64,000 bases of DNA from Escherichia coli (GCF_003018235.1 NZ_CP027437.1); one strand, 5' to 3'; numbered from the stretch's first letter, positions 1,381-28,830 are shown. Numbers and translations: made by a program. The notes: generated by a model from the letters alone, not told the origin.

Positions 1381-2073
1381 CTAGTGATACCCACGCGCGG
1401 TCATAAAATCCGTAATCGCTTTTTCTGCATCAACCAGTACCTTTTCCAGTGGCTGATTGGCGTCGATATCAACCAGTTGTGCACCACCAAAGGTTAACTG
1501 TGGCGTTATGGCTATCTTTCTTGCCAGCGATTCCCTTTTGTGGTCAGGCTTACGCGCGCAGGCCACGTCTAGATCGACATTGAGTTTGATGACCAGATCA
1601 GGTTTATGGCTCGCCATCCAGTGAAACGCTTTACGTTCCTGGCTTGCCAGCCATGAGACAAAACGACCACCTTCAATGTTAGGTGGGAACACTGTACCAT
1701 CGTAAGCGCCAGGAATTTGGTCCTGAGGATAACGGTCGGTTAGAACAATTAACCCGCGACGACGACAGGCAAGCATATGACGAAAGCGCAGTAAGCGACG
1801 GGCGACAAACGCTGTAATTACCAGCGCCGGAACAGGGCCAGGCAATTTTTTTGCTGTTTTCACCTGATTTCGTTCAATTGTTTTATGTAAGGATTTTCCC
1901 ATCAACGGTAATTTTGTCACTGCACGACCGACATTTCCGGCCTGTTTTCCTAAATGAACTCTTTCGGCTGCACCATATTTTTCGACAACGGTAATGAGAT
2001 GTTCACACACCGTTGACTTGCCTGAACCATCGCTACCAATAACGGCAATTAATGGAGGTGTTATTGACTGCAT
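1381..2073 (-). CDS. yghT: P-loop NTPase, kinase-like (YghT family)
   Basis: 230-aa ORF with Walker [14 protein letters not shown] and a downstream LTDRYP motif resembling the DRY/DRH motif of thymidylate/nucleoside-kinase-fold enzymes; paralogous to the next two genes. Confidence 0.8.
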
Positions 2074-2246: not shown

Positions 2247-2960
2247 GTGAATCAACGTAATATGTCAATAATTAATTCCACGCCAGTGCGTGTTATTGCC
2301 ATTGTAGGATGTGATGGTTCAGGTAAATCGACCCTCACGGCAAGCCTGGTAAATGAACTGGCAGCAAGAATGCCAACAGAACACATTTATCTCGGGCAAT
2401 CGTCCGGGCGAATTGGCGAATGGATTTCACAGCTCCCTGTTATTGGCGCACCTTTTGGGCGTTATTTGCGAAGTAAAGCGGCACATGTGCACGAAAAGCC
2501 CTCAGCACCGCCTGGCAATATTACTGCGCTGGTTATCTATCTGCTTTCCTGCTGGCGGGCGTACAAGTTTCGCAAAATGTTGTGTAAAAGCCAGCAAGGC
2601 TATCTGCTCATCACCGACCGCTACCCGCAGGTTGAAGTGCCGGGTTTTCGCTTTGATGGCCCGCAATTGGCAAAAACCACGGGCGGTAACGGTTGGATAA
2701 AAATGTTAAGGCAGCGCGAGCTGAAGCTGTACCAATGGATGGCGTCTTATTTGCCCGTATTGTTGATTCGTCTTGGCATTGATGAACAAACCGCGTTTGC
2801 GCGTAAACCTGACCACCAACTGGCAGCGTTACAGGAAAAAATCGCCGTTACGCCGCAACTGACATTCAATGGCGCAAAGATCCTTGAACTGGATGGTCGG
2901 CAACCAGCCGATGAAATTATGCAAGCGTCACTACGCGCAATTCACGCCGCGCTTTCCTGA
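2247..2960 (+). CDS. yghS: P-loop NTPase, kinase-like (YghS family)
   Basis: 237-aa ORF with Walker A IAIVGCDGSGKST and ITDRYPQ motif; clear paralog of yghT and yghR; no ABC signature (LSGGQ). Confidence 0.8.
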   Translation: MNQRNMSIINSTPVRVIAIVGCDGSGKSTLTASLVNELAARMPTEHIYLGQSSGRIGEWISQLPVIGAPFGRYLRSKAAHVHEKPSAPPGNITALVIYLLSCWRAYKFRKMLCKSQQGYLLITDRYPQVEVPGFRFDGPQLAKTTGGNGWIKMLRQRELKLYQWMASYLPVLLIRLGIDEQTAFARKPDHQLAALQEKIAVTPQLTFNGAKILELDGRQPADEIMQASLRAIHAALS

Positions 2961-2991: not shown

Positions 2992-3748
2992 ATGGATGCA
3001 CTACAAACACAAACTGTTAAGAGTACAACCGCGCCGCAGCCCAACTACATTCCGGGGCTGATTGCGGTGGTCGGGTGTGATGGCACCGGTAAATCCACGC
3101 TGACCACCGACCTGGTGAAATCGCTGCAACAACACTGGCAAACCGAGCGGCGCTATCTGGGGCTGCTCTCCGGCGAAGACGGCGACAAAATCAAACGATT
3201 GCCGTTGGTTGGCGTCTGGCTGGAACGGCGGCTGGCGGCCAAATCCTCGAAAACCCAAAGCATGAAAACCAAATTTCCAGCGCTATGGGCGGCGGTGATT
3301 ATGTACTGCTTCTCGCTGCGAAGAATGGCGAATCTACGCAAGGTTCAGCGACTGGCGCAAAGTGGCGTTCTGGTGGTCAGCGATCGCTTCCCGCAGGCTG
3401 AAATTTCGGGCTTTTATTATGACGGACCGGGGATCGGCGTCGAACGTGCGACCGGGAAAATCAGCATGTTTCTGGCGCAGCGCGAACGGCGTTTATACCA
3501 ACAAATGGCGCTACCGTCCTGAATTAATCATTCGCCTGGGCATTGATATTGATACTGCCATCTCCCGCAAGCCTGACCATGACTATGCCGAGCTGCAGGA
3601 CAAAATCGGCGTCATGTCGACGATTGGCTATAACGGCACAAAAATTCTTGAGATTGATTCCAGAGCGCCTTACAGCGAGGTGCTGGAACAGGCACAGAAG
3701 GCGGTTTCTCTGGTTGCCATCGTTTCTGACCGCCGAAGTTTAACTTAA
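2992..3748 (+). pseudogene. yghR: P-loop NTPase paralog YghR, apparently frameshifted
   Basis: Paralog homology runs in frame 1 (ORF 2992..3522, Walker A IAVVGCDGTGKST, VSDRFPQ) and then continues in another frame (ORF 3362..3748, RPELIIRLGIDIDTAISRKPDH aligning with yghS LPVLLIRLGIDEQTAFARKPDH). The 757-nt span is not a multiple of 3. Confidence 0.55.
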
Positions 3749-3793
3749 GGCAGGCGGGATACTTTTTACTATCAACGATAAGGTCAGGCTGAA

Positions 3794-5143
3794 TTGGCGG
3801 GTTTTAACATCAAACATTGGTTTGCAGATGGCGCGTTTCGCACCATTATTCGCAATAGCGCCTGGTTAGGCTCCAGTAATGTCGTGAGCGCCTTGCTGGG
3901 TCTGTTGGCGCTCTCGTGTGCCGGTAAAGGGATGACGCCCGCCATGTTTGGCGTACTGGTGATTGTGCAATCGTACGCCAAGTCGATCAGCGATTTTATT
4001 AAGTTTCAGACATGGCAGCTGGTGGTTCAGTACGGAACGCCAGCCTTGACCAACAATAATCCGCAGCAATTTCGCAATGTTGTCTCATTTTCCTTCTCGC
4101 TGGATATCGTCAGCGGCGCGGTGGCGATTGTCGGCGGCATTGCCTTACTGCCATTCCTTTCCCATTCATTAGGTCTGGATGACCAAAGCTTTTGGCTGGC
4201 GGCGCTCTATTGCACGCTCATTCCTTCAATGGCTTCCTCCACGCCGACCGGCATTCTGCGTGCGGTAGATCGCTTTGATTTGATTGCTGTACAGCAGGCG
4301 ACGAAACCTTTTCTGCGCGCAGCGGGGAGCGTCGTAGCCTGGTATTTTGACTTTGGTTTTGCGGGTTTTGTTATTGCCTGGTACGTGTCGAATCTGGTTG
4401 GCGGCACCATGTACTGGTGGTTTGCCGCGCGCGAATTACGCCGCAGAAATATCCATAACACCTTCAAATTGAATCTGTTTGAGTCTGCCCGACACATTAA
4501 AGGCGCGTGGAGTTTTGTCTGGTCAACCAACATTGCCCACTCCATCTGGTCGGCACGTAACTCGTGCAGCACAGTGCTGGTGGGGATCGTGTTAGGACCC
4601 GCTGCCGCCGGGTTATTTAAAATCGCCATGACATTCTTCGACGCCGCCGGAACGCCAGCGGGTTTACTGGGTAAAAGTTTTTACCCAGAGGTGATGCGTT
4701 TAGATCCGCGCACCACCAGACCGTGGTTGTTAGGCGTGAAGTCCGGTTTACTGGCGGGCGGAATCGGTATTCTGGTGGCGCTCGCGGTGTTGATCGTCGG
4801 CAAGCCGCTCATTTCGCTGGTGTTTGGCGTTAAGTATCTCGAAGCGTATGACCTGATTCAGGTGATGCTGGGCGCAATTGTGATTTCGATGCTGGGCTTC
4901 CCACAGGAGTCATTGCTATTGATGGCGGGAAAACAGCGCGCTTTTCTCGTGGCGCAAACCATCGCCTCAATCGGCTACATCGTATTGCTGTTCATGTTCT
5001 GTCATCTGTTTGGCGTGCTGGGGGCTGCATTTGCTTACTTCGCTGGGCAATGTCTGGATGTGGTGTTCTCGCTAATTCCAACCTTAAAGGCATTTTTTCA
5101 GCGCCATTCCTTGCTTTATAACGCAGCCGGAGAGAAATCCTGA
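3794..5143 (+). CDS. yghQ: Polytopic inner-membrane protein, MOP-superfamily flippase-like (YghQ); true start uncertain
   Basis: 449-aa ORF with many hydrophobic segments; I recall YghQ being annotated as a putative polysaccharide/lipid flippase. K-12 protein is shorter by my recollection, so an internal start is possible. Confidence 0.7.
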   Translation: MAGFNIKHWFADGAFRTIIRNSAWLGSSNVVSALLGLLALSCAGKGMTPAMFGVLVIVQSYAKSISDFIKFQTWQLVVQYGTPALTNNNPQQFRNVVSFSFSLDIVSGAVAIVGGIALLPFLSHSLGLDDQSFWLAALYCTLIPSMASSTPTGILRAVDRFDLIAVQQATKPFLRAAGSVVAWYFDFGFAGFVIAWYVSNLVGGTMYWWFAARELRRRNIHNTFKLNLFESARHIKGAWSFVWSTNIAHSIWSARNSCSTVLVGIVLGPAAAGLFKIAMTFFDAAGTPAGLLGKSFYPEVMRLDPRTTRPWLLGVKSGLLAGGIGILVALAVLIVGKPLISLVFGVKYLEAYDLIQVMLGAIVISMLGFPQESLLLMAGKQRAFLVAQTIASIGYIVLLFMFCHLFGVLGAAFAYFAGQCLDVVFSLIPTLKAFFQRHSLLYNAAGEKS

Positions 5144-5967
5144 TGATGAGAAAATATTTCCCGCTTGAGGCTAGCGAGCGTCTATTTGTTGCGATTGAAG
5201 AAGATGATGTCGTTGATGCACAGGTCAGTTTGCCGCCGACTATCGCACTAAGTTGTACCACCGAAATCATCCATGATAATTACGCGTTATGCCTGAAATT
5301 CTGGCTGGATGGTGTTAATCGTCAGGAGCTACTGCGTTTAATCCGCAAACAGGCGAAAGGCGATGAGCTGACGACAGACGAGCGCAAAAAGTATAAATAC
5401 ATGCGAGCGCGCTACAAGCATCTGCGCTTTGCGCAACGGCTGTATTTAAAGAAGCATCAGGCCGGATTTTTATTCGGCAAAACGACCGTTTTTTTGGGGC
5501 GTTTTCAGGACGGCTTTCGTAACGGTAAGAAAAATATTGTGTCGTATTACGGCAACCTGTTACGGGTTTATTTAAGCTCTCCGGTCTGGTCGTTGGTGAA
5601 CTATTCATTACGCCATAGCCAGTTAGAAAGCGTAAGCGGTTTTATTGCCTATCGGCAAAAGCAAATGCATACCCTGAAAGAGATAATTGCCAAACCGCGA
5701 CTAACTGGCAGGGAATTTCATGATGTGCGAAAAATCATCAGCCAGCAGGTTTCTTATTACGACACCCTAAGATCGCTTGATCCTGAAAATAAAGAGGCGT
5801 TACAGATTTCCCGCTTCCTCGCCGCCATTAATGGCCTGATGGGGGATAAACACGACGACATGGTGGCGGATGATATGGAAAACCGCCAGTCGTATGATGC
5901 ACCGGTGGCGCTGGATAGCGATATTCGCCAGCGCTTAGAGCTGCTGATTTCGCGTTTTCCGCTATAA
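5143..5967 (+). CDS. Hypothetical basic protein, 274 aa, function unknown
   Basis: ORF start overlaps the yghQ stop (TGATG), indicating translational coupling; no motif I recognise. Confidence 0.55.
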   Translation: MMRKYFPLEASERLFVAIEEDDVVDAQVSLPPTIALSCTTEIIHDNYALCLKFWLDGVNRQELLRLIRKQAKGDELTTDERKKYKYMRARYKHLRFAQRLYLKKHQAGFLFGKTTVFLGRFQDGFRNGKKNIVSYYGNLLRVYLSSPVWSLVNYSLRHSQLESVSGFIAYRQKQMHTLKEIIAKPRLTGREFHDVRKIISQQVSYYDTLRSLDPENKEALQISRFLAAINGLMGDKHDDMVADDMENRQSYDAPVALDSDIRQRLELLISRFPL

Positions 5968-5975
5968 CCGGAGCA

Positions 5976-6539
5976 ATGATGTCATCTCGTTTGATTATTG
6001 CGCTGATTATCATGCTCTTAGCCCCGGGTGTGCAGGCACACAATTTCGTCACTGGCAAAACGGTTACCCCTGTTTATATCCAGGAAGGCGGCGAGCTGCT
6101 TCTGAATAGCGACGACGAAATTCACTACCAAAAGTGGAACAGCACACAGCTGGCGGGAAAAGTTCGCATTATTCAGTATATCGCCGGGCGTAAGTCGGCG
6201 AAGAAAAAGAACTCACTGTTAATTAAAGCGGTTGAAGCGGCAAACTTTCCGCAGGATCGTTTTCAGCCCACCACCATTGTGAACACCGATGATGCCATTT
6301 TTGGTACTGGCTATTTTGTCGTTGGCAAAATCGAAAAAAATAAACGCCGCTATCCGTGGGCGCAATTCGTTATTGACGGCAATGGACAGGGACGCGTTGC
6401 CTGGCGGTTGCCGGAGCAGAGTTCAACCATTCTGGTGCTGAATAAAGCCGGGCAAATTCAGTGGGCAAAGGACGGCAGCCTGACGCCGGAAGAGGTAGAA
6501 CATGTCATTGCGCTGGCGCAGAAACTGATCAATGAATAA
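5976..6539 (+). CDS. Secreted/periplasmic YtfJ-family protein
   Basis: 187-aa ORF with N-terminal signal peptide (MMSSRLIIALIIMLLAPGVQA then HNF). Blocks TTIVNTDDAI and WAKDGSLTPEEV match my memory of E. coli YtfJ. Confidence 0.6.
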   Translation: MMSSRLIIALIIMLLAPGVQAHNFVTGKTVTPVYIQEGGELLLNSDDEIHYQKWNSTQLAGKVRIIQYIAGRKSAKKKNSLLIKAVEAANFPQDRFQPTTIVNTDDAIFGTGYFVVGKIEKNKRRYPWAQFVIDGNGQGRVAWRLPEQSSTILVLNKAGQIQWAKDGSLTPEEVEHVIALAQKLINE

Positions 6540-6569: not shown

Positions 6570-7640
6570 ATGAAGCTGGTTGAACACTACATCATGCGTG
6601 GTACGCGCCGTCTGGTGCTGATTATCGTCGGTTTTCTGATCTTTATTTTCGCCAGCTACTCCGCACAGCGTTATCTGACCGAAGCGGCAAATGGGACATT
6701 AGCTCTTGATGTTGTGCTGGATATTGTTTTCTACAAGGTGCTGATTGCACTGGAGATGTTGTTACCTGTTGGACTGTATGTGTCAGTTGGCGTGACGCTA
6801 GGGCAGATGTATACCGACTCGGAAATTACCGCTATTTCTGCGGCGGGGGGCAGTCCGGGACGCTTGTACAAAGCCGTTCTTTATCTGGCGATACCGCTAA
6901 GTATTTTTGTCACCCTTCTGTCGATGTATGGTCGTCCGTGGGCTTATGCGCAGATTTATCAACTGGAGCAACAGTCACAGTCGGAGCTGGATGTTCGCCA
7001 GTTGCGGGCAAAGAAATTTAACACTAACGATAACGGACGAATGATCCTTTCGCAGACGGTTGATCAGGATAATAATCGCCTGACTGACGCGCTGATTTAT
7101 ACTTCTACTGCCAATCGAACCCGCATTTTCCGCGCCCGTTCGGTTGATGTGGTTGACCCATCACCTGAGAAACCGACCGTTATGTTGCATAACGGGACCG
7201 CCTATCTTCTCGATCATCAGGGGCGTGACGACAACGAACAGATCTACCGTAATCTGCAATTACATCTGAATCCGCTGGATCAAAGCCCTAACGTCAAACG
7301 CAAAGCAAAATCGGTCACGGAGCTGGCGCGCTCCGCCTTTCCTGCCGATCATGCCGAACTGCAATGGCGACAAAGCCGTGGCCTGACAGCATTGTTGATG
7401 GCGCTGCTGGCCATTTCATTAAGTCGGGTAAAACCGCGGCAAGGGCGATTTTCAACGTTATTGCCACTGACGTTGCTGTTTATTGCCATTTTTTATGGCG
7501 GCGACGTCTGCCGTACGCTGGTGGCTAACGGCGCGATTCCCCTCATTCCTGGTTTGTGGTTAGTACCCGGACTCATGCTAATGGGCCTGCTGATGCTGGT
7601 CGCACGCGACTTCTCATTGCTGCAGAAATTTTCCCGATGA
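6570..7640 (+). CDS. LptF/LptG-family (YjgP/YjgQ) permease, first of a pair
   Basis: 356-aa ORF with N-terminal TM helices, an LGQMYTDSEITAISAAG block resembling LptF LGKLYTESEIT, a central soluble domain and C-terminal TM helices. Confidence 0.7.
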   Translation: MKLVEHYIMRGTRRLVLIIVGFLIFIFASYSAQRYLTEAANGTLALDVVLDIVFYKVLIALEMLLPVGLYVSVGVTLGQMYTDSEITAISAAGGSPGRLYKAVLYLAIPLSIFVTLLSMYGRPWAYAQIYQLEQQSQSELDVRQLRAKKFNTNDNGRMILSQTVDQDNNRLTDALIYTSTANRTRIFRARSVDVVDPSPEKPTVMLHNGTAYLLDHQGRDDNEQIYRNLQLHLNPLDQSPNVKRKAKSVTELARSAFPADHAELQWRQSRGLTALLMALLAISLSRVKPRQGRFSTLLPLTLLFIAIFYGGDVCRTLVANGAIPLIPGLWLVPGLMLMGLLMLVARDFSLLQKFSR

Positions 7641-8716
7641 ATGTTTTCAGTCGCTATTTAATCCGTCATCTCTTTCTCGGTTTTGCCGCCGCCGCAGGGC
7701 TATTGCTGCCGCTTTTTACCACCTTCAACCTGATTAACGAACTGGATGATGTCAGCCCGGGCGGTTATCGCTGGACTCAGGCGGTGCTGGTGGTGCTGAT
7801 GACCTTACCGCGTACACTGGTCGAACTTTCGCCGTTTATCGCATTATTGGGAGGGATTGTTGGCCTGGGGCAGTTATCGAAAAACAGTGAGCTTACCGCC
7901 ATTCGCAGCACGGGGTTTTCTATCTTCCGTATTGCACTAGTGGCGCTGGTTGCCGGGATATTGTGGACTGTTTCGTTAGGCGCGATAGATGAGTGGGTGG
8001 CGTCGCCATTGCAGCAACAGGCGCTGCAAATCAAATCGACTGCCACCGCGTTGGGGGAGGACGATGACATTACCGGCAATATGCTTTGGGCCAGGCGCGG
8101 TAATGAATTTGTGACGGTGAAATCGCTGAACGAGCAGGGCCAGCCTGTGGGCGTGGAGATATTTCATTATCGCGACGATCTCTCGCTCGAATCCTACATT
8201 TTTGCACGCAGTGCCTCCATTGAAGACGACAAAACATGGATCCTGCATGGTGTGAATCATAAAAAATGGTTGAATGGCAAGGAAACGCTGGAAACATCAG
8301 ATAATCTTGCCTGGCAATCGGCCTTCACCAGTATGAATCTTGAAGAGTTATCGATGCCGGGAAATACTTTTTCTGTCCGTCAACTTAATCATTACATCCA
8401 TTATTTGCAGGAAACTGGGCAACCCAGCAGCGAATACCGCCTTGCACTGTGGGAAAAACTGGGACAACCCATCCTGACCCTGGCGATGATTTTGCTGGCT
8501 GTGCCGTTTACCTTTAGTGCCCCGCGTTCGCCTGGGATGGGTAGCCGTCTCGCTGTAGGCGTCATCGTGGGCTTACTTACCTGGATCAGCTATCAAATCA
8601 TGGTCAATCTGGGATTGCTATTTGCGTTGAGCGCACCTGTTACCGCGCTCGGTTTACCGGTAGCGTTTGTGCTGGTGGCGTTGAGCCTGGTGTATTGGTA
8701 TGACAGACAACATTAA
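7637..8716 (+). CDS. LptF/LptG-family (YjgP/YjgQ) permease, second of a pair
   Basis: Start MNVFSRYLIRH overlaps the upstream stop (ATGA at 7637-7640); SELTAIRSTGFS block resembles LptG SELVVMQASGF; same TM - periplasmic domain - TM layout. Confidence 0.7.
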   Translation: MNVFSRYLIRHLFLGFAAAAGLLLPLFTTFNLINELDDVSPGGYRWTQAVLVVLMTLPRTLVELSPFIALLGGIVGLGQLSKNSELTAIRSTGFSIFRIALVALVAGILWTVSLGAIDEWVASPLQQQALQIKSTATALGEDDDITGNMLWARRGNEFVTVKSLNEQGQPVGVEIFHYRDDLSLESYIFARSASIEDDKTWILHGVNHKKWLNGKETLETSDNLAWQSAFTSMNLEELSMPGNTFSVRQLNHYIHYLQETGQPSSEYRLALWEKLGQPILTLAMILLAVPFTFSAPRSPGMGSRLAVGVIVGLLTWISYQIMVNLGLLFALSAPVTALGLPVAFVLVALSLVYWYDRQH

Positions 8717-8717
8717 A

Positions 8718-8744
8718 CCCGCCGTGGCGCAACACCACAGCGGG
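8718..8744. terminator. Hairpin in the 35-bp gap between the convergent permease and Spt-like genes; possible bidirectional terminator
   Basis: cccgccgtgg (8718-8727) and ccacagcggg (8735-8744) form an imperfect inverted repeat with one mismatch. Confidence 0.4.
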
Positions 8745-8750
8745 CTCACA

Positions 8751-9923
8751 TTACTGCTTCAGAGTAGCGAACGCTTGAATGATGGCATCAATTTGCTCAC
8801 GACTGTGGGCAGCGTTTACGCTACAGCGCAGCAGCGTGATGCCTGCAGGCGCGGCAGGTGGCAGGATAAGATTCACATAAACGCCCAGCGAAATAAGCTC
8901 GCGCCAGATGCGTAAACCTTCCTCTTTCGAACCGATTATTACTGGCACTACCGGGCTAATATGTGAACTTAACTCATAATCCAGTTTTTGCAGACCGTCA
9001 TACAGATGGTTGGCATTATCCATCAGCTTTTGCCGCAACTCTGGTTGTGAGACAATGGTTCTTAACGACGAGCGCACGGTCGCAATGCAGGACGGAGAAG
9101 GAGAGGCGGTAAAAATATACGGGCGGCTGCCGTAGCGCAACACTTCCATCGCTTCCGAACCGACAGCAAAACCGCCAATCGAGGCCAGGCTTTTACTGAA
9201 GGTACCAACGATAATATCCACATCATCTTCAACGCCAACGGCTTCAGCCAGTCCGCGCCCCGTTGCGCCTAACACGCCAAACGAATGCGCTTCATCGACA
9301 ATCAAATAACCACCGAGACGACGTTTGATATCAACAATTTCCGCCAGCGGCGCAACGTCACCGAGCATACTGTAGATGCCTTCAACGATGATAATCGCCT
9401 CTTTTGCCCGTTCACCGAGGCGAACCATGCGCCGTTCCAGATCTTTAGCATCGTTATGGCGGAAACGAATAATTTCCGCGCCACCGAGAGAACAGGCGTC
9501 ATAAATACTGGCGTGGCTGTCGGCATCCAGTAACACCACGGCGTTATGGTCGGCAAGTGCGCTGATGACGCCTAAATTAGCGGTATAACCGGTTGAAAAA
9601 ACGATAGCGGTAGGGCGATTAAAAAACTCGGCGATCTCTTTCTCTAACGCCAGATGCGGCGCATAACTGCCGTTTGCCATACGAGAACCGGTGGTGCCGG
9701 TGCCTTGGGCCGCTAACGCTGCCTGACCTTCGGCGATGGCATCATGATTAAAGGTTAAACCGAGATAATTATTGGTCCCGGCCAGAATCACTTTTTTATT
9801 GCCGATCCGACCTTCGGTGGCGGAATACACTTCATCAATACAGGTGCCAAACGGTGTTAACCCGTTGTCACTAAATTGCAGTCGCTCGCCAGCAAGGCGC
9901 GCATATTTATCGTATAGCCCCAT
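8751..9923 (-). CDS. PLP-dependent alpha-oxoamine synthase, serine-palmitoyltransferase-like (Spt/Kbl/BioF family)
   Basis: 390-aa ORF with the PLP-lysine motif GTFSKSLASIGGF and DEAHSFG, as in serine palmitoyltransferase and 8-amino-7-oxononanoate synthase. Confidence 0.8.
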   Translation of the reverse strand: MGLYDKYARLAGERLQFSDNGLTPFGTCIDEVYSATEGRIGNKKVILAGTNNYLGLTFNHDAIAEGQAALAAQGTGTTGSRMANGSYAPHLALEKEIAEFFNRPTAIVFSTGYTANLGVISALADHNAVVLLDADSHASIYDACSLGGAEIIRFRHNDAKDLERRMVRLGERAKEAIIIVEGIYSMLGDVAPLAEIVDIKRRLGGYLIVDEAHSFGVLGATGRGLAEAVGVEDDVDIIVGTFSKSLASIGGFAVGSEAMEVLRYGSRPYIFTASPSPSCIATVRSSLRTIVSQPELRQKLMDNANHLYDGLQKLDYELSSHISPVVPVIIGSKEEGLRIWRELISLGVYVNLILPPAAPAGITLLRCSVNAAHSREQIDAIIQAFATLKQ

Positions 9924-10171
9924 TATTTATTCTCCAGCCATGGAAGTAGTGTTTCCATTAATTGCGCAGGGGTTTTGACATCCAGCAGAATATTAATAGG
10001 AATGGAAATATCGAATCTGTCTTCCAGCATCATTAAGAGATCCATCACTTTGATCGACTCCAGGCCAAGATCGTTGACGAGATCGCTGTCGGGCTTAATT
10101 TCCACACCGTTTTCGACCAAATCCTGTAAACAGGAAAGGATGTAATCCATTACTATTTCACGATTTACCAT
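9923..10171 (-). CDS. Acyl carrier protein
   Basis: 82-aa acidic ORF with phosphopantetheine-attachment motif DLGLESIKVMDL; its stop overlaps the Spt start (TAATG). Confidence 0.75.
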   Translation of the reverse strand: MVNREIVMDYILSCLQDLVENGVEIKPDSDLVNDLGLESIKVMDLLMMLEDRFDISIPINILLDVKTPAQLMETLLPWLENK

Positions 10172-10202
10172 AGAAACGTTAACACACCTTTAAACAAGAC
10201 AA

Positions 10203-11117
10203 TCAAAATAGCCCGTTGCGTAATGCGTGTTCCAGGCTAATCCCGGGAAACCAATTAATATCTTCAGAAATACGGTTATTACTTGCCGACCAGTCGGCAT
10301 GAGTTAATTCACGGATTTTCGAACGAGTCAGCATCGGTTCTTTACCCGCCAGACGGCTCAACGCGGTACTGATATCCGCAAGGCAGGTGAGTAGCGGCAG
10401 AGGAATACCGACCATCCGCACGGAACCGCAACGGGCGTCGGCGGCAAGCTGTCTTACGCGTTGCCAGTCATAGCCTCCGGCGACGCCATCGCATAATTCA
10501 TAGGTTTGCGTCTGTACAGTTTCGGCGCTTAACCACTGACCCACTGCTTGCGCAAAATCGGTGACGTGAAGAAAAGAGAGCTGTGTCTCTGGCGTGCCAA
10601 GTCGTGGCAGCAGGCCGCGCAGCATCCAGTCAAACAGCGGTTTTAACTCTTTATCGCCGGGACCATACACGGCTGTCGGGCGAAAAACGCCCAGCGTAAT
10701 TTCATCAGCCATTGCAGTCAGCCGTTGTTCGGCGACGTGTTTGGAATTTGCGTACCAGGAGAGTTCGGGATGGCGCGCCGCCAGCGAAGAGATAAACAGA
10801 AAACGTTGGCAAAAGCCGCTCTCTTTTGCCGCTTGCATCAGGCGCAGGCTGCCGTCAACGTTACAGCGGGTAAAAATCTCTTCTTTGTGTCCGCGCACTT
10901 GTCCGGCGCAATGGACCACCGCGCTGGCTCCGGCAACCAGTTCGCTAAGCGAATGTGTATCTTCCAGCGAACCGCGCACCCAGATGAGATTATCATTGAC
11001 GTGAGCGCGGGCAGTACGCGTCAATGCGCGAACGTGAAAGCCGCGGGCGAGCAGGTTATCGATAATATATTTACCGATAAACCCGGTAGCGCCCGTCACC
11101 GCGACAGTTTGATTCAT
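10203..11117 (-). CDS. NAD(P)-dependent epimerase/dehydratase-family (extended SDR) reductase, CerR-like
   Basis: 304-aa ORF with N-terminal Rossmann motif VTGATGFIG and catalytic YxxxK (YANSK). Confidence 0.75.
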   Translation of the reverse strand: MNQTVAVTGATGFIGKYIIDNLLARGFHVRALTRTARAHVNDNLIWVRGSLEDTHSLSELVAGASAVVHCAGQVRGHKEEIFTRCNVDGSLRLMQAAKESGFCQRFLFISSLAARHPELSWYANSKHVAEQRLTAMADEITLGVFRPTAVYGPGDKELKPLFDWMLRGLLPRLGTPETQLSFLHVTDFAQAVGQWLSAETVQTQTYELCDGVAGGYDWQRVRQLAADARCGSVRMVGIPLPLLTCLADISTALSRLAGKEPMLTRSKIRELTHADWSASNNRISEDINWFPGISLEHALRNGLF

Positions 11118-12823
11118 GCCAGGGATTCCTGCACATGAAGGCTTGCAGCATAACGTTTTTTCGCTTCCGCACGGGCAGGCTTGCCGGAGGACGTTCGGGG
11201 AATACTGTGGGGCGGCAACAGATCGATAGCCGCTGTTACGCCAAATTCGCTTTGGATCCGTGCTACCAGTGCGTGGATAAGCTGCCCACGACGTTCTTCG
11301 TCGCTGATCCTACACTGGATCTGCAGAATGATTTTTTCCTGGGCGGTAACAAAAGCAATCGCATCGCCAGAATGAATTTCCGGTTCCTGTTCCGCAATAT
11401 ATTCAATATCCTGCGGCCAGATATTACGGCCACGAATAATAATCAGATCTTTAATGCGTCCGGTGACATACAGATAACCGTCCAGCAGATAACCGAGGTC
11501 GCCGGTGTCTAACCAGCCCGTCGCGGCAATCTCGTCTTGTGAAATCTGGTCGCCAAAGTAACCGCTCATCAGGCTAGGGCCGGAGATGCAAATATGGCCT
11601 ACCACACGTTCCGCGACAGGTATACCTGCTTCATTGCGGATTTCAATGCCATGTTCCGGCAACGCTTTACCGCAGTTGACGAAAGTCGATACGGCGCGTG
11701 TTTCAGCATCCGGCGCGACGGCTTTGCCCTGATATTCGAGGATGTCGCGATCCACTTCGTTAACCACAACCCCGGAAGCTTCATCAGAGAAGCTGACAGC
11801 CAGCGCATTTTCTGCCAGTCCGTAGCACGGCATGAAAGTTTTATCGTCAAAGTTGACCTGACGGAAACATTCAGCGAATTGATGGAGTTGTTCTGCGGAG
11901 ATGGGTTCTGCACCAATACCAGCGACGCGCCAGCAGGAAAGATCCAGTTCAGCGAGATCTTTTTCATTCACGCGGCGCTGGCACAATTCATAGCCAAACG
12001 GCGGCGCAACGGAAACGGTGCCGCGATTTTTACTGATCAATTTAAGCCATTGCAGAGGACGCATGGCAAAATCCTGAGTGCGCAAATAATCTACTGAAAG
12101 CTGCGTGGCGACGGGGGGCAGGAGAAAGCCGACCAGTCCCATATCATGGTAGAAAGGCAGCCAGGAGACGCAGCGGTCGCCAGGGCGTAATTTAATGCCA
12201 TCGTGGCTTATAGCACGTAGATTAGCCATCACTTCGCGATGGGTGATAATGACGCCACGGGGAAAACGGGTGCTGCCGGAGGTGTACTGGAGGTAGGCGA
12301 TATCGTTCGGAACTGGACGCTGGAGCGCAACATCGGCTTCCGGTAATGCCTTAAACCAGGCGTGGCTTAAAACATGTAATTCGGGGTTGTTATGCGTAGC
12401 GGCATTGACCAGTGGCAACCACTCATCACCAGTGATAATGGCTGCGGGCTGGCAACTTGCCAGTAAACCCTGCAGTTTGGCGCTCCAGGAATCCCGCTGA
12501 CCGACGCCCATTGGAATCGCCAACGGGACGGCGACTAAGCCGGCATACTGGCAGGAAAAAAAAGCCTCTACGAACCCGCTACTGGTTTCGGCAATCAGCG
12601 CCACGCGATCGCCTTTTTTCAGGTTCAGCGATAACAACCGCTTCGCACCAGCTTCGGCACGCGCTTTTAACGTCTGATATTCCAGTTGATCTTCAAGTTG
12701 GCAACGTCTGTCATAAAAATTCATTCCGGCGCTACTCAGAGCGGCGTAGTCCAAAGCATCAACCAGCGTTGGAAAATCGGCATAGCGCATAGGTAGGGAA
12801 TGCGTAAAGATTTTATTAGACAT
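11114..12823 (-). CDS. Fatty-acyl-AMP ligase / acyl-ACP synthetase (AMP-binding superfamily)
   Basis: Adenylation motifs YTSGSTRFPRGV and TGDLGY...GRIKDLIIIRGRNI; stop overlaps the reductase start (ATGA). Start taken at the ATG for MSNKIF; the ORF track extends to 12850 on a TTG. Confidence 0.8.
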   Translation of the reverse strand: MSNKIFTHSLPMRYADFPTLVDALDYAALSSAGMNFYDRRCQLEDQLEYQTLKARAEAGAKRLLSLNLKKGDRVALIAETSSGFVEAFFSCQYAGLVAVPLAIPMGVGQRDSWSAKLQGLLASCQPAAIITGDEWLPLVNAATHNNPELHVLSHAWFKALPEADVALQRPVPNDIAYLQYTSGSTRFPRGVIITHREVMANLRAISHDGIKLRPGDRCVSWLPFYHDMGLVGFLLPPVATQLSVDYLRTQDFAMRPLQWLKLISKNRGTVSVAPPFGYELCQRRVNEKDLAELDLSCWRVAGIGAEPISAEQLHQFAECFRQVNFDDKTFMPCYGLAENALAVSFSDEASGVVVNEVDRDILEYQGKAVAPDAETRAVSTFVNCGKALPEHGIEIRNEAGIPVAERVVGHICISGPSLMSGYFGDQISQDEIAATGWLDTGDLGYLLDGYLYVTGRIKDLIIIRGRNIWPQDIEYIAEQEPEIHSGDAIAFVTAQEKIILQIQCRISDEERRGQLIHALVARIQSEFGVTAAIDLLPPHSIPRTSSGKPARAEAKKRYAASLHVQESLA

Positions 12824-13194
12824 ATACACCACGAAAAAATTGGATATCAAAAATAAAATGACAATAATGCGGTGGATTATATAGGCATAAAAGATAAATG
12901 AGATAGTATTTTCATCAGTGTGAAAATGAACATTGATTTAAATAATGAGTTTGAGTTTTTTTGTTTTTATTGTGAATGATATTTAATTTATGAATGTATT
13001 AAGAAGAAGCCTTGTCCGGTCGCCTTAAATCGACAAAAGGCATTGTGGCGCTTCTGTGTAGTCTCTGACCTTATCGTAATCATTAATAAATGCTATTTAT
13101 TCGTCGTTTGTATTCATTGGGTTGATTATTAAGGTGCCGTTCGTTGCTGTTGCAACCTGTTTGTCACCGTTAATTATTTGTTACCCACAGAACT
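12824..13194. promoter_or_regulatory. AT-rich divergent control region between the lipid operon (-) and yghO (+)
   Basis: ~370 bp of visibly AT-rich non-coding DNA with A/T tracts between two divergently oriented starts; typical of divergent promoters and H-NS-bound regions. No specific site identified. Confidence 0.45.
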
Positions 13195-14337
13195 ATGGAA
13201 TGCGATCTGCTGATGATTAAAATTGAAAAAGTAATTAATAAAAATGACCTTAAGGCATTTATCGCTTTTCCGTCATCACTTTATCCCGACGATCCAAACT
13301 GGATACCCCCTTTATTCATTGAACGCAACGAGCATTTGTCTGCGAAAAATCCGGGGACGGACCATATCATCTGGCAGGCGTGGGTGGCAAAAAAAGCCGG
13401 GCAGATAGTTGGGCGAATTACCGCGCAAATCGATACCTTGCACCGTGAGCGTTACGGTGAAGATACCGGTCATTTCGGCATGATTGACGCCATTGATGAT
13501 CCGCAGGTTTTTGCCGCGTTGTTTGGCGCAGCGGAAGCGTGGTTGAAGTCACAAGGAGCAAGTAAGATCAGCGGGCCTTTCAGCCTGAATATCAATCAGG
13601 AAAGCGGATTACTGATTGAAGGTTTCGATACACCACCCTGTGCGATGATGCCGCACGGTAAACCGTGGTATGCCGCGCATATTGAACAATTGGGTTATCA
13701 CAAAGGCATTGATTTACTGGCGTGGTGGATGCAGCGAACCGATCTCACTTTCTCTCCGGCGCTAAAAAAACTGATGGATCAGGTGCGTAAGAAGGTGACC
13801 ATTCGCTGCATCAATCGCCAGCGGTTTGCCGAAGAGATGCAGATCCTGCGTGAGATTTTCAACTCTGGCTGGCAGCACAACTGGGGATTTGTGCCGTTTA
13901 CCGAACATGAATTCGCGACCATGGGCGATCAACTTAAATATCTGGTGCCGGACGATATGATCTACATCGCTGAGATTGATTCTGCACCCTGCGCGTTTAT
14001 TGTCGGCTTGCCAAACATCAACGAGGCGATTGCCGATCTGAACGGATCGCTCTTTCCCTTCGGCTGGGCAAAATTGCTGTGGCGTTTAAAAGTCAGCGGT
14101 GTGCGAACTGCGCGAGTACCGCTGATGGGCGTGCGGGACGAGTATCAGTTTAGCCGCATCGGCCCGGTGATTGCGCTGTTATTGATTGAAGCCTTACGCG
14201 ATCCGTTTGCCCGCCGGAAGATCGATGCGCTGGAAATGTCATGGATCCTCGAAACCAATACAGGCATGAATAACATGCTGGAACGCATTGGGGCGGAGCC
14301 GTACAAGCGTTACCGATTGTATGAAAAGCAGATTTAA
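13195..14337 (+). CDS. yghO: YghO, candidate N-acyltransferase (possibly GNAT-like), intact here
   Basis: 380-aa ORF next to glcC, which is where yghO sits in E. coli. The acyltransferase assignment is from recollection of annotation and context, not from a motif I can verify. Start could be M7 (MIKIEKV). Confidence 0.65.
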   Translation: MECDLLMIKIEKVINKNDLKAFIAFPSSLYPDDPNWIPPLFIERNEHLSAKNPGTDHIIWQAWVAKKAGQIVGRITAQIDTLHRERYGEDTGHFGMIDAIDDPQVFAALFGAAEAWLKSQGASKISGPFSLNINQESGLLIEGFDTPPCAMMPHGKPWYAAHIEQLGYHKGIDLLAWWMQRTDLTFSPALKKLMDQVRKKVTIRCINRQRFAEEMQILREIFNSGWQHNWGFVPFTEHEFATMGDQLKYLVPDDMIYIAEIDSAPCAFIVGLPNINEAIADLNGSLFPFGWAKLLWRLKVSGVRTARVPLMGVRDEYQFSRIGPVIALLLIEALRDPFARRKIDALEMSWILETNTGMNNMLERIGAEPYKRYRLYEKQI

Positions 14338-23828: not shown

Positions 23829-24267
23829 ATTATTCTGTCTTATTAATTGAAAATTATTTCTCGCTTTATTATCCATGCGGCAATAATGTTTTGTGTTTAG
23901 ATAACCTGCTAAATAATTAAGATCGTGAGAACATCTATTTTTTATCACGCGAAACAAGTCTGTACTAATTATGTTCGCTTGATGAGCAAACACCGTTCTA
24001 TCTGTTGCTTTTGCAATCTTAATCGTTAAAACTACCAACGAATTTATATAGTTACGTTGTGAAAAGTTGTTAATTTTTTGTTTAATGAAATTTCGTAAAA
24101 ATCACCAGCCAGACATCGAATAGGGGTTATTCTTATAAATTTCACCTGCTTTGCTATCAATGATGCCGTTTTATTAAGAATGGAGGAAGTTATTAGAGAA
24201 GATAAAGCATAAAACTATTTCTCCCAGTTACGAATTTTTTAACATTGTTTTGTCACTTGCGTTATTA
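23829..24267. promoter_or_regulatory. AT-rich upstream region of sslE/yghJ; probable promoter of the sslE-pppA-yghG-gsp transcription unit
   Basis: ~440 bp of AT-rich non-coding DNA upstream of the first gene of a co-directional, closely packed cluster. This operon is reported to be H-NS silenced. Confidence 0.45.
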
Positions 24268-27200
24268 ATGAATAAGAAATTTAAATATAAGAAATCGCTT
24301 TTAGCGGCTATTTTGAGCGCAACCCTGTTAGCCGGTTGTGATGGCGGTGGTTCCGGATCTTCCTCCGATACGCCGCCTGTAGATTCTGGAACAGGGTCTT
24401 TGCCGGAAGTGAAACCTGATCCAACACCAAACCCGGAGCCGACGCCTGAGCCAACGCCGGACCCAGAACCTACGCCGGAACCGACACCTGATCCTGAGCC
24501 AACACCAGAACCGGAGCCAGAACCTGTTCCTACGAAAACGGGTTATCTGACCCTGGGCGGAAGCCAGCGGATAACTGGTGCTACTTGTAATGGTGAATCC
24601 AGCGATGGCTTTACCTTTACGCCAGGCGACAAAGTCACCTGTGTGGCAGGGAACAACACGACAATTGCTACCTTCGACACCCAGTCAGAAGCTGCGCGTA
24701 GCCTGCGTGCGGTTGAAAAAGTGTCGTTTAGTCTTGAGGATGCGCAAGAACTGGCGGCTTCCGATGACAAGAAAAGCAATGCGGTTTCGCTGGTAACGTC
24801 CAGTAACAGCTGTCCGGCGAATACAGAACAGGTTTGCCTGTCGTTCTCCTCTGTGATCGAGAGTAAACGTTTCGACTCACTGTATAAGCAAATCGATCTG
24901 GCACCGGAAGAGTTCAAAAAGCTGGTCAATGAAGAGGTGGAAAACAATGCTGCGACCGATAAAGCGCCATCCACTCATACCTCACCGGTTGTGCCTGTCA
25001 CCACGCCGGGAACAAAACCGGATCTGAACGCTTCCTTCGTGTCGGCTAACGCGGAACAGTTTTATCAGTATCAACCTTCGGAAATCATTCTCTCCGAAGG
25101 CCGACTGGTCGATAGCCAGGGATATGGTGTTGCTGGCGTCAACTACTACACCAATTCAGGCCGTGGCGTGACAGGGGAAAATGGTGAATTTTCCTTTAGC
25201 TGGGGCGAAACCATCTCCTTTGGTATCGATACCTTTGAACTGGGTTCAGTGCGCGGCAATAAGTCGACCATTGCGCTGACTGAACTGGGTGATGAAGTTC
25301 GCGGGGCGAATATTGATCAGCTTATTCATCGCTATTCGACGACCGGGCAAAATAATACCCGTGTTGTTCCGGACGATGTACGCAAGGTCTTTGCCGAATA
25401 TCCCAACGTGATCAACGAGATTATCAATCTCTCGTTATCCAACGGTGCGACGCTGGATGAAGGTGAGCAAGTTGTTAATCTGCCAAACGAATTTATTGAG
25501 CAGTTTAAGACGGGTCAAGCCAAAGAGATCGATACCGCGATTTGTGCGAAAACCGACGGTTGTAACGAGGCTCGCTGGTTCTCGCTGACGACGCGCAATG
25601 TTAATGACGGCCAGATTCAGGGCGTTATCAACAAGCTGTGGGGCGTGGATACGAACTACAAATCTGTCAGCAAGTTCCATGTATTCCATGACTCTACCAA
25701 CTTCTATGGCAGCACGGGTAATGCGCGCGGTCAGGCGGTGGTGAATATCTCCAACGCGGCCTTCCCGATTCTGATGGCGCGTAATGATAAAAACTACTGG
25801 CTGGCGTTTGGCGAAAAACGCGCCTGGGATAAAAACGAGCTGGCGTACATTACGGAAGCGCCTTCTCTTGTTGAGCCGGAAAACGTTACGCGCGATACCG
25901 CCACCTTCAACCTGCCGTTTATCTCGTTGGGGCAAGTCGGCGATGGCAAGCTGATGGTTATCGGTAACCCGCACTACAACAGCATTTTGCGTTGTCCGAA
26001 CGGTTACAGTTGGAACGGAGGCGTTAATAAAGACGGGCAGTGTACGCTCAGCGGTGATTCAGATGACATGAAGAACTTCATGGAGAACGTGCTGCGCTAT
26101 CTGTCAAATGATCGCTGGTTGCCGGATGCAAAATCCAATATGACCGTAGGCACCAACCTGGATACTGTCTATTTCAAACGTCATGGTCAGGTTACAGGAA
26201 ACAGCGCTGAGTTCGGCTTCCATCCGGATTTTGCGGGTATCTCCGTTGAGCATTTAAGTAGCTATGGCGATCTCGACCCGCAGGAAATGCCGCTGCTGAT
26301 CCTCAACGGCTTTGAGTATGTGACTCAGGTGGGGGGCGATCCTTATGCAATCCCGCTGCGTGCAGATACCAGCAAACCGAAGCTGACTCAGCAGGATGTG
26401 ACCGATCTGATCGCCTATCTGAACAAAGGTGGATCGGTGCTGATCATGGAAAACGTGATGAGCAATCTTAAGGAAGAGAGCGCGTCTGGTTTTGTGCGTC
26501 TGTTGGATGCTGCAGGTCTGTCAATGGCACTGAACAAGTCGGTGGTGAATAACGATCCTCAAGGGTATCCGAACCGCGTTCGTCAGCAGCGCGCAACGGG
26601 CATTTGGGTCTATGAACGTTATCCTGCCGTAGACGGTGCGCTGCCGTACACCATCGATAGTAAGACAGGGGAAGTTAAGTGGAAATATCAGGTAGAAAAC
26701 AAACCTGATGACAAACCGAAGCTGGAAGTTGCCAGCTGGCTGGAAGATGTAGATGGCAAACAGGAAACGCGTTATGCCTTTATTGATGAGGCCGATCATA
26801 AAACAGAGGATTCTCTGAAGGCTGCGAAGGAGAAAATTTTCGCGGCGTTCCCGGGGCTGAAAGAGTGTACTAATCAGGCATATCACTACGAGGTCAACTG
26901 TCTGGAATATCGTCCTGGCACGGGGGTTCCGGTTACTGGTGGCATGTATGTTCCACAGTATACGCAACTAAGCCTTAACGCCGACACGGCAAAAGCGATG
27001 GTGCAGGCTGCGGATTTAGGCACCAACATTCAGCGTCTGTATCAGCATGAGCTCTACTTCCGGACCAATGGTCGCAAAGGTGAGCGTCTGAGCAGCGTCG
27101 ATCTGGAACGTCTGTACCAGAACATGTCGGTCTGGCTGTGGAACGATACGAGCTATCGTTATGAAGAAGGCAAAAATGACGAGCTGGGCTTTAAAACGTT

Positions 27201-28830
27201 CACCGAGTTCCTGAACTGCTATACCAACGATGCCTATACCGATGGCACACAGTGCTCCGCAGATCTGAAAAAATCGCTGGTCGATAACAACATGATCTAC
27301 GGTGACGGTAGCAGCAAAGCGGGCATGATGAACCCGAGCTATCCACTCAACTATATGGAAAAACCGCTGACGCGCCTGATGCTGGGCCGTTCCTGGTGGG
27401 ATCTGAACATTAAGGTTGATGTGGAGAAGTACCCAGGAGCGGTATCTGTAGGGGGAGAAGAGGTTACTGAAACCATCAGCCTGTACTCGAATCCGACCAA
27501 ATGGTTTGCAGGTAACATGCAGTCAACTGGCCTGTGGGCACCGGCTCAGAAAGAGGTCACCATTAAGTCCAATGCGAACGTTCCTGTGACCGTCACCGTG
27601 GCGCTGGCTGACGACCTGACCGGAAGAGAGAAGCATGAAGTCGCGCTGAACCGTCCGCCAAGAGTAACCAAAACGTACTCTCTGGACGCTAGCGGTACGG
27701 TGAAGTTCAAGGTGCCTTACGGTGGCCTGATTTATATCAAGGGCAATAGCTCTACCAATGAATCTGCCAGCTTCATCTTTACTGGCGTGGTAAAAGCACC
27801 GTTCTATAAAGACGGCGCATGGAAAAACGATCTGAACTCACCGGCTCCGCTGGGTGAGCTGGAATCAGACGCTTTCGTCTATACCACACCGAAGAAGAAC
27901 CTGAATGCCAGCAATTACACGGGCGGACTGGAGCAATTCGCTAACGATCTGGATACCTTTGCCAGCTCGATGAATGACTTCTACGGTCGTAATGATGAAG
28001 ACGGTAAGCACCGGATGTTTACCTATAAAAACTTGACGGGCCACAAGCATCGTTTCACCAACGATGTGCAGATCTCCATCGGTGATGCGCACTCGGGTTA
28101 TCCGGTAATGAACAGCAGCTTCTCGACGAACAGCACCACGCTGCCGACGACGCCGCTGAACGACTGGCTGATCTGGCACGAAGTTGGTCACAACGCCGCC
28201 GAAACGCCGCTGACTGTTCCTGGCGCAACTGAAGTAGCGAACAACGTGCTGGCGCTGTACATGCAGGATCGCTATCTCGGCAAGATGAACCGTGTCGCTG
28301 ACGATATTACTGTCGCGCCGGAATATCTGGAGGAGAGCAACGGTCAGGCATGGGCGCGCGGCGGTGCGGGTGACCGTCTGCTGATGTACGCGCAGCTGAA
28401 GGAGTGGGCAGAGAAAAACTTTGATATCAAACAGTGGTATCCAGAAGGCTCTCTGCCAGAGTTCTACAGCGAGCGTGAAGGGATGAAAGGCTGGAACCTG
28501 TTCCAGTTGATGCACCGTAAAGCGCGCGGCGATGAGGTTGGCAATAACAAGTTCGGCAGTAAGAACTACTGTGCTGAATCTAACGGTAACGCTGCCGACA
28601 CGCTGATGCTGTGTGCCTCCTGGGTCGCCCAGACGGATCTTTCGGAGTTCTTTAAGAAATGGAATCCGGGCGCGAATGCTTACCAGTTGCCGGGAGCGAC
28701 GGAGATGAGCTTCGAAGGCGGTGTGAGCCAGTCGGCTTACAACACGCTCGCGTCACTCGATCTGCCGAAACCGAAGCAAGGGCCGGAAACCATTAATAAG
28801 GTTACCGAATATTCGATGCCTGCTGAATAA
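24268..28830 (+). CDS. sslE: SslE/YghJ secreted lipoprotein, M60-like zinc metalloprotease (mucinase)
   Basis: 1520 aa from MNKKFKYKK; lipobox LLAGC; proline-rich PEPTPD repeats; zinc motif HEVGH at 28177-28191. Confidence 0.9.
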   Translation: MNKKFKYKKSLLAAILSATLLAGCDGGGSGSSSDTPPVDSGTGSLPEVKPDPTPNPEPTPEPTPDPEPTPEPTPDPEPTPEPEPEPVPTKTGYLTLGGSQRITGATCNGESSDGFTFTPGDKVTCVAGNNTTIATFDTQSEAARSLRAVEKVSFSLEDAQELAASDDKKSNAVSLVTSSNSCPANTEQVCLSFSSVIESKRFDSLYKQIDLAPEEFKKLVNEEVENNAATDKAPSTHTSPVVPVTTPGTKPDLNASFVSANAEQFYQYQPSEIILSEGRLVDSQGYGVAGVNYYTNSGRGVTGENGEFSFSWGETISFGIDTFELGSVRGNKSTIALTELGDEVRGANIDQLIHRYSTTGQNNTRVVPDDVRKVFAEYPNVINEIINLSLSNGATLDEGEQVVNLPNEFIEQFKTGQAKEIDTAICAKTDGCNEARWFSLTTRNVNDGQIQGVINKLWGVDTNYKSVSKFHVFHDSTNFYGSTGNARGQAVVNISNAAFPILMARNDKNYWLAFGEKRAWDKNELAYITEAPSLVEPENVTRDTATFNLPFISLGQVGDGKLMVIGNPHYNSILRCPNGYSWNGGVNKDGQCTLSGDSDDMKNFMENVLRYLSNDRWLPDAKSNMTVGTNLDTVYFKRHGQVTGNSAEFGFHPDFAGISVEHLSSYGDLDPQEMPLLILNGFEYVTQVGGDPYAIPLRADTSKPKLTQQDVTDLIAYLNKGGSVLIMENVMSNLKEESASGFVRLLDAAGLSMALNKSVVNNDPQGYPNRVRQQRATGIWVYERYPAVDGALPYTIDSKTGEVKWKYQVENKPDDKPKLEVASWLEDVDGKQETRYAFIDEADHKTEDSLKAAKEKIFAAFPGLKECTNQAYHYEVNCLEYRPGTGVPVTGGMYVPQYTQLSLNADTAKAMVQAADLGTNIQRLYQHELYFRTNGRKGERLSSVDLERLYQNMSVWLWNDTSYRYEEGKNDELGFKTFTEFLNCYTNDAYTDGTQCSADLKKSLVDNNMIYGDGSSKAGMMNPSYPLNYMEKPLTRLMLGRSWWDLNIKVDVEKYPGAVSVGGEEVTETISLYSNPTKWFAGNMQSTGLWAPAQKEVTIKSNANVPVTVTVALADDLTGREKHEVALNRPPRVTKTYSLDASGTVKFKVPYGGLIYIKGNSSTNESASFIFTGVVKAPFYKDGAWKNDLNSPAPLGELESDAFVYTTPKKNLNASNYTGGLEQFANDLDTFASSMNDFYGRNDEDGKHRMFTYKNLTGHKHRFTNDVQISIGDAHSGYPVMNSSFSTNSTTLPTTPLNDWLIWHEVGHNAAETPLTVPGATEVANNVLALYMQDRYLGKMNRVADDITVAPEYLEESNGQAWARGGAGDRLLMYAQLKEWAEKNFDIKQWYPEGSLPEFYSEREGMKGWNLFQLMHRKARGDEVGNNKFGSKNYCAESNGNAADTLMLCASWVAQTDLSEFFKKWNPGANAYQLPGATEMSFEGGVSQSAYNTLASLDLPKPKQGPETINKVTEYSMPAE
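24409..24525 (+). repeat. In-frame tandem repeat encoding a proline-rich PEPTP(D/E) linker in SslE
   Basis: Repeated ccngaacc(n)acnccn units encoding PDPTPNPEPTPEPTPDPEPTPEPTPDPEPTPEPEPEP. Confidence 0.7.

Follow-up and report, generated by a model that had tools for sequence, protein, structure and literature searches.

Two described gene clusters are the closest relatives of the locus considered here, which consists of four genes on the minus strand at 8751-12823 of a 64,000-nucleotide stretch of DNA from Escherichia coli (GCF_003018235.1, NZ_CP027437.1); this whole stretch is referred to as the window. The nearer of the two is that of E. coli BL21(DE3), ECD_02850-ECD_02854 (yghO/aca, aasR, epi, acpR, and spt; PMC9386255). 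It is the same locus, found at the same chromosomal position between the yghQ/lptFG paralogues and yghO-glcC, with the same gene order and junctions and with proteins that are 96.4-100% identical to those of the window. The differences are only allelic: the window AasR is devoid of the residues QKAY, each enzyme carries 5-13 substitutions, and yghR is frameshifted in the window. The other is that of Caulobacter crescentus, CC_1162-CC_1165 with CC_1154 (spt, acpR, epi/cerR, aasR, and aca/bcerS), which provides the same five functions and keeps the same four-gene order. The published identities between the Caulobacter and E. coli proteins are 53% for Spt, 42% for AasR, 34% for Epi (as compared with CC_1164), and 44% for Aca/YghO. 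Compared with these systems, the window genes aasR-epi/cerR-acpR-spt very probably constitute the E. coli sphingolipid (dihydroceramide) biosynthesis operon. The operon has already been described and represents known biology, to which the window adds no new biology; it is not a discovery because its genes are annotated in RefSeq and its products have been in part crystallised and biochemically characterised.

The biochemistry of the near-identical E. coli proteins has been reported by two groups of authors. Padilla-Gomez et al. 2022 (PMC9386255) found that the co-expression of AasR-Ec, AcpR-Ec, and SPT-Ec gives rise to 3-oxo-sphinganine. In the same study AcpR-Ec was found to bear 4′-phosphopantetheine, AasR-Ec acylated its own AcpR but not that of Caulobacter, and SPT-Ec favoured acyl-AcpR as the thioester substrate. 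The ligase is also known as EcFAAL, a fatty acyl-AMP ligase (FAAL) which loads lauric acid onto holo-EcACP and rejects coenzyme A (CoA) (Patil et al. 2021, PMC8460268). Its crystal structure, 3PBK, is credited to Zhang et al. 2011 in PMC8460268 and PMC11837247, and the crystals held lauroyl- and myristoyl-adenylate (C12/C14).

The initial annotation of the window had proposed four minus-strand genes in the order ligase, reductase, carrier protein, and synthase, and all four are indeed intact open reading frames (ORFs) at the places assigned to them. The ligase gene aasR (11114-12823, 569 amino acids) encodes the dedicated acyl-ACP (acyl carrier protein) synthetase. It is followed by epi/cerR (10203-11117, 304 amino acids), whose product is an extended short-chain dehydrogenase/reductase (SDR) resembling NDUFA9 and is predicted to be the 3-keto reductase. 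The specialised acyl carrier protein is encoded by acpR (9923-10171, 82 amino acids), and the last gene, spt (8751-9923, 390 amino acids), encodes a pyridoxal 5′-phosphate (PLP) dependent alpha-oxoamine synthase, the serine palmitoyltransferase (SPT). The proposed junctions can each be read in the sequence: the ligase stop and the SDR start share four nucleotides in an ATGA at 11117-11114, the ACP stop and the Spt start share one nucleotide in a TAATG at 9925-9921, and a spacer of 31 nucleotides (10172-10202) separates the SDR stop from the ACP start.

The five motifs on which the gene assignments had been based are also located at the expected positions, all of them on the minus strand. In the ligase, the adenylation motif YTSGSTRFPRGV occupies residues 180-191 (window 12251-12286). 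The SDR contains the Rossmann motif TGATGFIG at residues 8-15 (11073-11096) and YANSK, of the YxxxK type, at residues 122-126 (10740-10754). The phosphopantetheine site DLGLESI is found at residues 34-40 of the ACP (10052-10072), and the PLP-lysine motif GTFSKSLASIGGF at residues 240-252 of Spt (9168-9206), where K244 is the PLP lysine. The gene identities and their order agree with the family tests and with the published near-identical E. coli proteins. The family and structure matches of the operon proteins have E-values from 1e-110 to 0, far past chance. In RefSeq the ligase is listed as fatty acyl-AMP ligase, the SDR as NAD-dependent epimerase/dehydratase family protein, and the carrier as acyl carrier protein, and the synthase gene is named spt (serine palmitoyltransferase). 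The exact protein sequences of the window are found in E. coli assemblies at NCBI.

AasR reaches 867 bits against the NCBIfam model NF006624 (fatty acyl-AMP ligase), well past the cut-off of 600. The match to 3PBK (E-value 0) extends over the whole protein, N-terminal MSNKIF... extension included, at about 98% identity, and the ligase contains the FAAL-specific insertion and the core motifs of adenylate-forming enzymes. The window ligase is thus the same protein as EcFAAL, which has been published as an acyl-adenylate former that passes the acyl group to a cognate ACP and not to CoA; the identity to AasR of BL21(DE3), ECD_02851, is 97.0%. The alignment with 3PBK runs without gaps save for four C-terminal residues, corresponding to positions 561-564 of the crystallised chain. 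These residues, QKAY, are present in the crystal structure as well as in BL21 and strain 300444; in the window, a 12-nucleotide in-frame deletion at 11149/11150 (minus strand) removes them. The deleted positions lie downstream of and outside the active-site loop (545-553) and past the A10 lysine. The start of the protein is ambiguous in the databases, where forms of 562, 573, and 576-577 amino acids occur; the candidates in the window are the ATG at 12823, an in-frame TTG at 12850, and the shorter RefSeq start at 12790. The ATG at 12823, which had been chosen in the initial annotation, is supported by its presence in the crystallised EcFAAL construct and by the DNA conservation in Hafnia and Citrobacter, which runs through it.

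Spt scores 594.9 bits against the NCBIfam serine palmitoyltransferase equivalog NF047599 (cut-off 500) and is 98.7% identical to ECD_02854, from which it differs by five residues. Its closest match of known structure is the SPT of Sphingomonas paucimobilis (SpSPT, 2JG2; E = 1.4e-110). With this enzyme and with that of S. wittichii (2X8U) it shares the fold and the residues His159, Asp231, His234, Lys265, and Arg390 of SpSPT, which are kept as H137, D210, H213, K244, and the Arg of LLRCS, respectively. The Sphingomonas enzymes differ from E. coli Spt in family assignment, as the latter matches best the NCBIfam model SerpalmtaseBetaP and not SerpalmtaseAlphaP.

The carrier protein is matched by ACP models with scores that stay under the housekeeping cut-offs. 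The serine of its DLGLES sequence aligns with the phosphopantetheine serine (DSL) of known ACPs; the protein is 100% identical to ECD_02853, and its gene lies directly upstream of spt. The SDR matches the Pfam family Epimerase (PF01370) at 4.4e-23 through its Rossmann domain, is 96.4% identical to ECD_02852 (Epi/CerR), and finds its top PDB matches in the NDUFA9/39-kDa subunits of complex I. Caulobacter CerR has been reported to be NDUFA9-like as well (PMC11087976). By analogy with Caulobacter genetics, the E. coli SDR would reduce the 3-keto group of either 3-oxo-sphinganine or 3-oxo-ceramide.

Several features of the locus point to a single transcription unit. The four genes lie on the same strand with overlapping or short junctions. 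Internal terminator-like sites in the cluster are not above chance (7 found as compared with 6.0 expected from shuffled sequence), whereas right after the spt stop a stem-loop at 8714-8748 (minus strand) probably serves as the operon terminator. It lies between spt and the convergent lptG paralogue, has a stem of 16 bp in the terminator scan, and folds at -29 kcal/mol, with z = -6.0 relative to shuffles. The gene order, the ATGA overlap, and an SDR-ACP spacer of 29-31 nucleotides are kept in Hafnia and Citrobacter. From this arrangement we infer that the four genes are co-transcribed. Upstream of the operon, aasR and yghO diverge from an AT-rich intergenic region of 371 bp (12824-13194), whose GC content is 32% as compared with 52% for the cluster and which is presumed to be a promoter and regulatory region. 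In its alignment with Hafnia and Citrobacter no regulatory motif could be called, and conservation was seen only near the aasR start. A scan of 8500-13400 with Rfam returned no RNA family. It may be speculated that the intergenic region is silenced in the manner of H-NS targets.

The cluster is widespread in the species. The 4073-bp segment is found in 4165 of the 5426 complete E. coli genomes (77%), nearly always at 95-99% identity; a complete ceramide pathway is thus the rule among natural E. coli, but K-12 lacks it. The chromosomal order is pitB, yghT, yghS, yghR, yghQ ... yghO, glcC, and glcDEFGB. In K-12 MG1655, an IS5 element (insH9) is flanked by a truncated yghQ on one side and by the 5′ end of yghO on the other (K-12 locus 12147-13341), and the eight intervening genes are gone; the lack of sphingolipid genes in K-12 is therefore ascribed to an IS5-associated deletion. 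Among the 4181 matching places in the complete E. coli genomes, one is on a plasmid and not on a chromosome.

The pathway can be outlined as follows. AasR would adenylate a free fatty acid and, because it cannot use CoA, would move the acyl group to the 4′-phosphopantetheine arm of the dedicated AcpR. Spt, a soluble PLP enzyme, would then condense acyl-AcpR with L-serine to give 3-oxo-sphinganine and CO2. As the published data were obtained with a ligase, an ACP, and an Spt that are 97-100% identical to those of the window, the mechanism of these first three steps can be regarded as established. The scheme of activation, loading of a dedicated ACP, and PLP-dependent condensation, accompanied by a reductase, had been put forward from the sequence, and it matches both the family tests and the BL21(DE3) enzymology. 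The pathway needs, in addition, a fifth gene outside the four of the initial annotation, namely, the divergent N-acyltransferase gene yghO (Aca, bacterial ceramide synthase or bCerS; 13195-14337, plus strand). Its product is a candidate bacterial ceramide synthase/N-acyltransferase; the structural model has a tandem GNAT fold, and the protein is the orthologue of Caulobacter CC_1154. YghO would N-acylate the long-chain base, and the NDUFA9-like SDR would finally reduce the 3-keto group to yield dihydroceramide.

What weighs against the locus as a working dihydroceramide operon concerns the active site of Spt, the later steps of the pathway, and expression. The equivalent of SpSPT Arg378 is a leucine in the window enzyme, Leu354 of LILPPAAPAG (8862-8864, minus strand). 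In SpSPT this arginine belongs to the PPATP loop and contacts the serine carboxylate. The leucine is common to the Hafnia, Citrobacter, Pseudocitrobacter, and E. albertii orthologues; the comparison covers close orthologues, since the best 120 Spt homologues are all at least 84% identical. Its presence could indicate that the synthase is not an SPT but a relative of BioF, Kbl, or CqsA, whose product would be 8-amino-7-oxononanoate, 2-amino-3-ketobutyrate, or an alpha-amino ketone (a signal or natural product) built on the ACP-bound acyl chain. All these enzymes have the same fold and PLP-lysine motif and give strong matches, and many older database entries call the protein 8-amino-7-oxononanoate synthase. 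Such an activity is nevertheless extremely improbable. While passing the SPT equivalog, the protein stays under the cut-offs of the sister families (bioF, 331.9 as compared with 426.45; Kbl, 293.5 with 460; ALAS, 216.4 with 338.55; CqsA-type, 217.9 with 428). Its nearest structures are bacterial SPTs, at 1e-110, whereas Kbl and BioF structures are matched at about 1e-57. Published enzymology contradicts it directly, in that the 98.7% identical SPT-Ec makes 3-oxo-sphinganine. As SPT-Ec is active, Arg378 is evidently not essential. A preference for BioF- or Kbl-like substrates was what the initial annotation had named as the result that would speak against its reading; given that the enzyme fails the BioF and Kbl cut-offs and passes that of SPT, this objection falls. 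With Spt taken as a serine palmitoyltransferase, the doubt moves to the later steps, as the activities of YghO and of the reductase in E. coli, and their order, are presumptive. In the eukaryote-like order, 3-oxo-sphinganine would be reduced to sphinganine before N-acylation by YghO. This order was proposed by Olea-Ozuna et al. 2021, as restated by Padilla-Gomez et al. 2022 (PMC9386255), and BL21 with the three-protein system showed spots migrating like sphinganine and ceramide (PMC9386255). Moreover, no signal peptide can be recognised in the E. coli SDR, where the Rossmann motif already begins at residue 8. In Caulobacter, by contrast, oxidised ceramide builds up when cerR is deleted, and CerR behaves as a periplasmic protein whereas Spt and bCerS are cytoplasmic (PMC11087976, which also gives the conclusions of Stankeviciute et al. 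2022, Nat Chem Biol). These two observations favour acylation before reduction (PMC11087976), and reduction as the earlier step is accordingly considered rather unlikely. The sequence of condensation and then keto reduction suggested in the initial annotation thus holds for the condensation, which is borne out by the published 3-oxo-sphinganine, while the order of the following steps is disputed, the suggestion corresponding to one of two published models.

The remaining points against the acylation-before-reduction pathway as a functioning one in the source strain concern expression and gene integrity. In the literature searched, no sphingolipid has been reported from wild-type E. coli. BL21(DE3) carries the cluster, yet it gave no 3-oxo-sphinganine with empty vectors or upon over-expression of SPT only (PMC9386255), which suggests that the native operon is silent under those conditions. 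Upstream of aasR, no consensus sigma-70 promoter was found above chance, as the scan returned no more sites than in shuffled sequence. The yghR gene is frameshifted after about residue 172, its ORF ending at 3522, whereas it encodes 252 intact amino acids in other E. coli. The AasR allele with the four-residue C-terminal deletion is rare: in its exact 558-amino acid form (start at 12790) it occurs in only 12 contigs, while its protein cluster has 14,649 members. A locus whose genes function in vitro but which is cryptic or decaying in the source strain, making no lipid under any natural condition, would account for these observations, and also for the low GC content of the upstream region and for the loss of the cluster from K-12 at no obvious cost. 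On the other hand, none of the five core genes or of the LptF/LptG paralogue genes is disrupted, and their products share 96-100% identity with those of BL21. The cluster is kept in more than three quarters of the complete genomes, and Hafnia and Citrobacter retain the whole surrounding block, with an Spt that is about 84-85% identical. The intactness of the genes, their retention, and the presence of the block across genera argue for purifying selection. A cryptic or decaying locus is therefore considered unlikely; the native operon nevertheless seems silent in culture.

The operon belongs to a block of about 14 kb with 13 genes, namely, yghT, yghS, yghR, the yghQ flippase gene, the gene of a 274-amino acid protein, a YtfJ-like gene, lptF, lptG, spt, acpR, epi, aasR, and yghO. 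The block runs in the same order from pitB to yghO in Hafnia and in Citrobacter amalonaticus; the identity of Spt there is 84-85%, and the flanks past yghO differ. Convergent with spt, and sharing the terminator hairpin region with it, lie the genes of an LptF paralogue (6570-7640, plus strand; TIGR04407, 319 bits) and of an LptG paralogue (7637-8716, plus strand; TIGR04408, 304.7 bits). They form a second LptF/LptG pair and score over the cut-offs of the equivalogs for lipopolysaccharide export. A 2026 preprint implicates the Caulobacter LptF2/LptG2 in the transport of sphingolipids and also draws the E. coli UTI89 locus. By analogy, the E. coli paralogues are candidate permeases of a sphingolipid exporter. 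RefSeq calls the two genes of the block lptF and lptG, although they are paralogues associated with the sphingolipid locus.

Upstream of this pair, the plus strand encodes a yghQ-like flippase (3794-5143), assigned by family scans to the MOP/Polysacc_synt type, and the 274-amino acid hypothetical protein (5143-5967), whose gene shares base 5143 with the flippase gene and is thus translationally coupled to it. The latter protein is kept in three genera and has no match in Pfam, beyond noise, or in NCBIfam. A YtfJ-family protein follows (5976-6539, plus strand; family scans). Three genes at the far end of the block, yghT (1381-2073, minus strand), yghS (2247-2960, plus strand), and the frameshifted yghR (2992-3750, plus strand), encode P-loop proteins which weakly resemble thymidylate (dTMP) kinases. 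Their matches to TIGR00041 are weak and far under the cut-off, and the genes travel with the block by synteny. The Caulobacter locus has LptF/LptG paralogues too. It differs in having an LptC paralogue and the genes cpgABC, whose products build the head group of ceramide phosphoglycerate, in place of which the E. coli block has yghQ, the 274-amino acid protein, the YtfJ-family protein, and the P-loop proteins of yghRST.

Since the four genes are the core of a 13-gene block that Escherichia, Hafnia, and Citrobacter have kept together as a whole, we tentatively consider the possibility that wild E. coli make a so far undescribed, head-group-modified sphingolipid. Such a lipid might be phosphorylated by the P-loop proteins and reach the outer membrane by way of an LptB-LptF2G2 machine, and could have been overlooked owing to the IS5-associated loss in K-12 and to the silence of the operon in laboratory culture. 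With the enzymology of the first steps solved, the interest of the locus now lies in the native lipid and its head group, the order of the later steps, the regulation of the operon, export by LptF/LptG, and the conserved neighbours.

Other genes with a possible bearing on lipid synthesis are found around yghO homologues. In the Hafnia locus, a 4′-phosphopantetheinyl transferase gene (4570-5226; PF17837 and PF01648) adjoins the yghO homologue, and its product could serve specifically to activate AcpR. No phosphopantetheinyl transferase gene was found at the position adjoining yghO in the E. coli loci examined. The neighbourhood of one distant relative of YghO contains genes for lipid head groups, encoding a CDP-alcohol phosphatidyltransferase, a fatty-acid hydroxylase, and nucleotidyltransferases. 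Beyond yghO, the window from 14344 to 40750 has the look of ordinary E. coli chromosome, with glcC, glcDEFGB, and glcA followed by an ORF of 1526 amino acids at 24250-28830, which stands in the position of yghJ, and then by a run of plus-strand ORFs.

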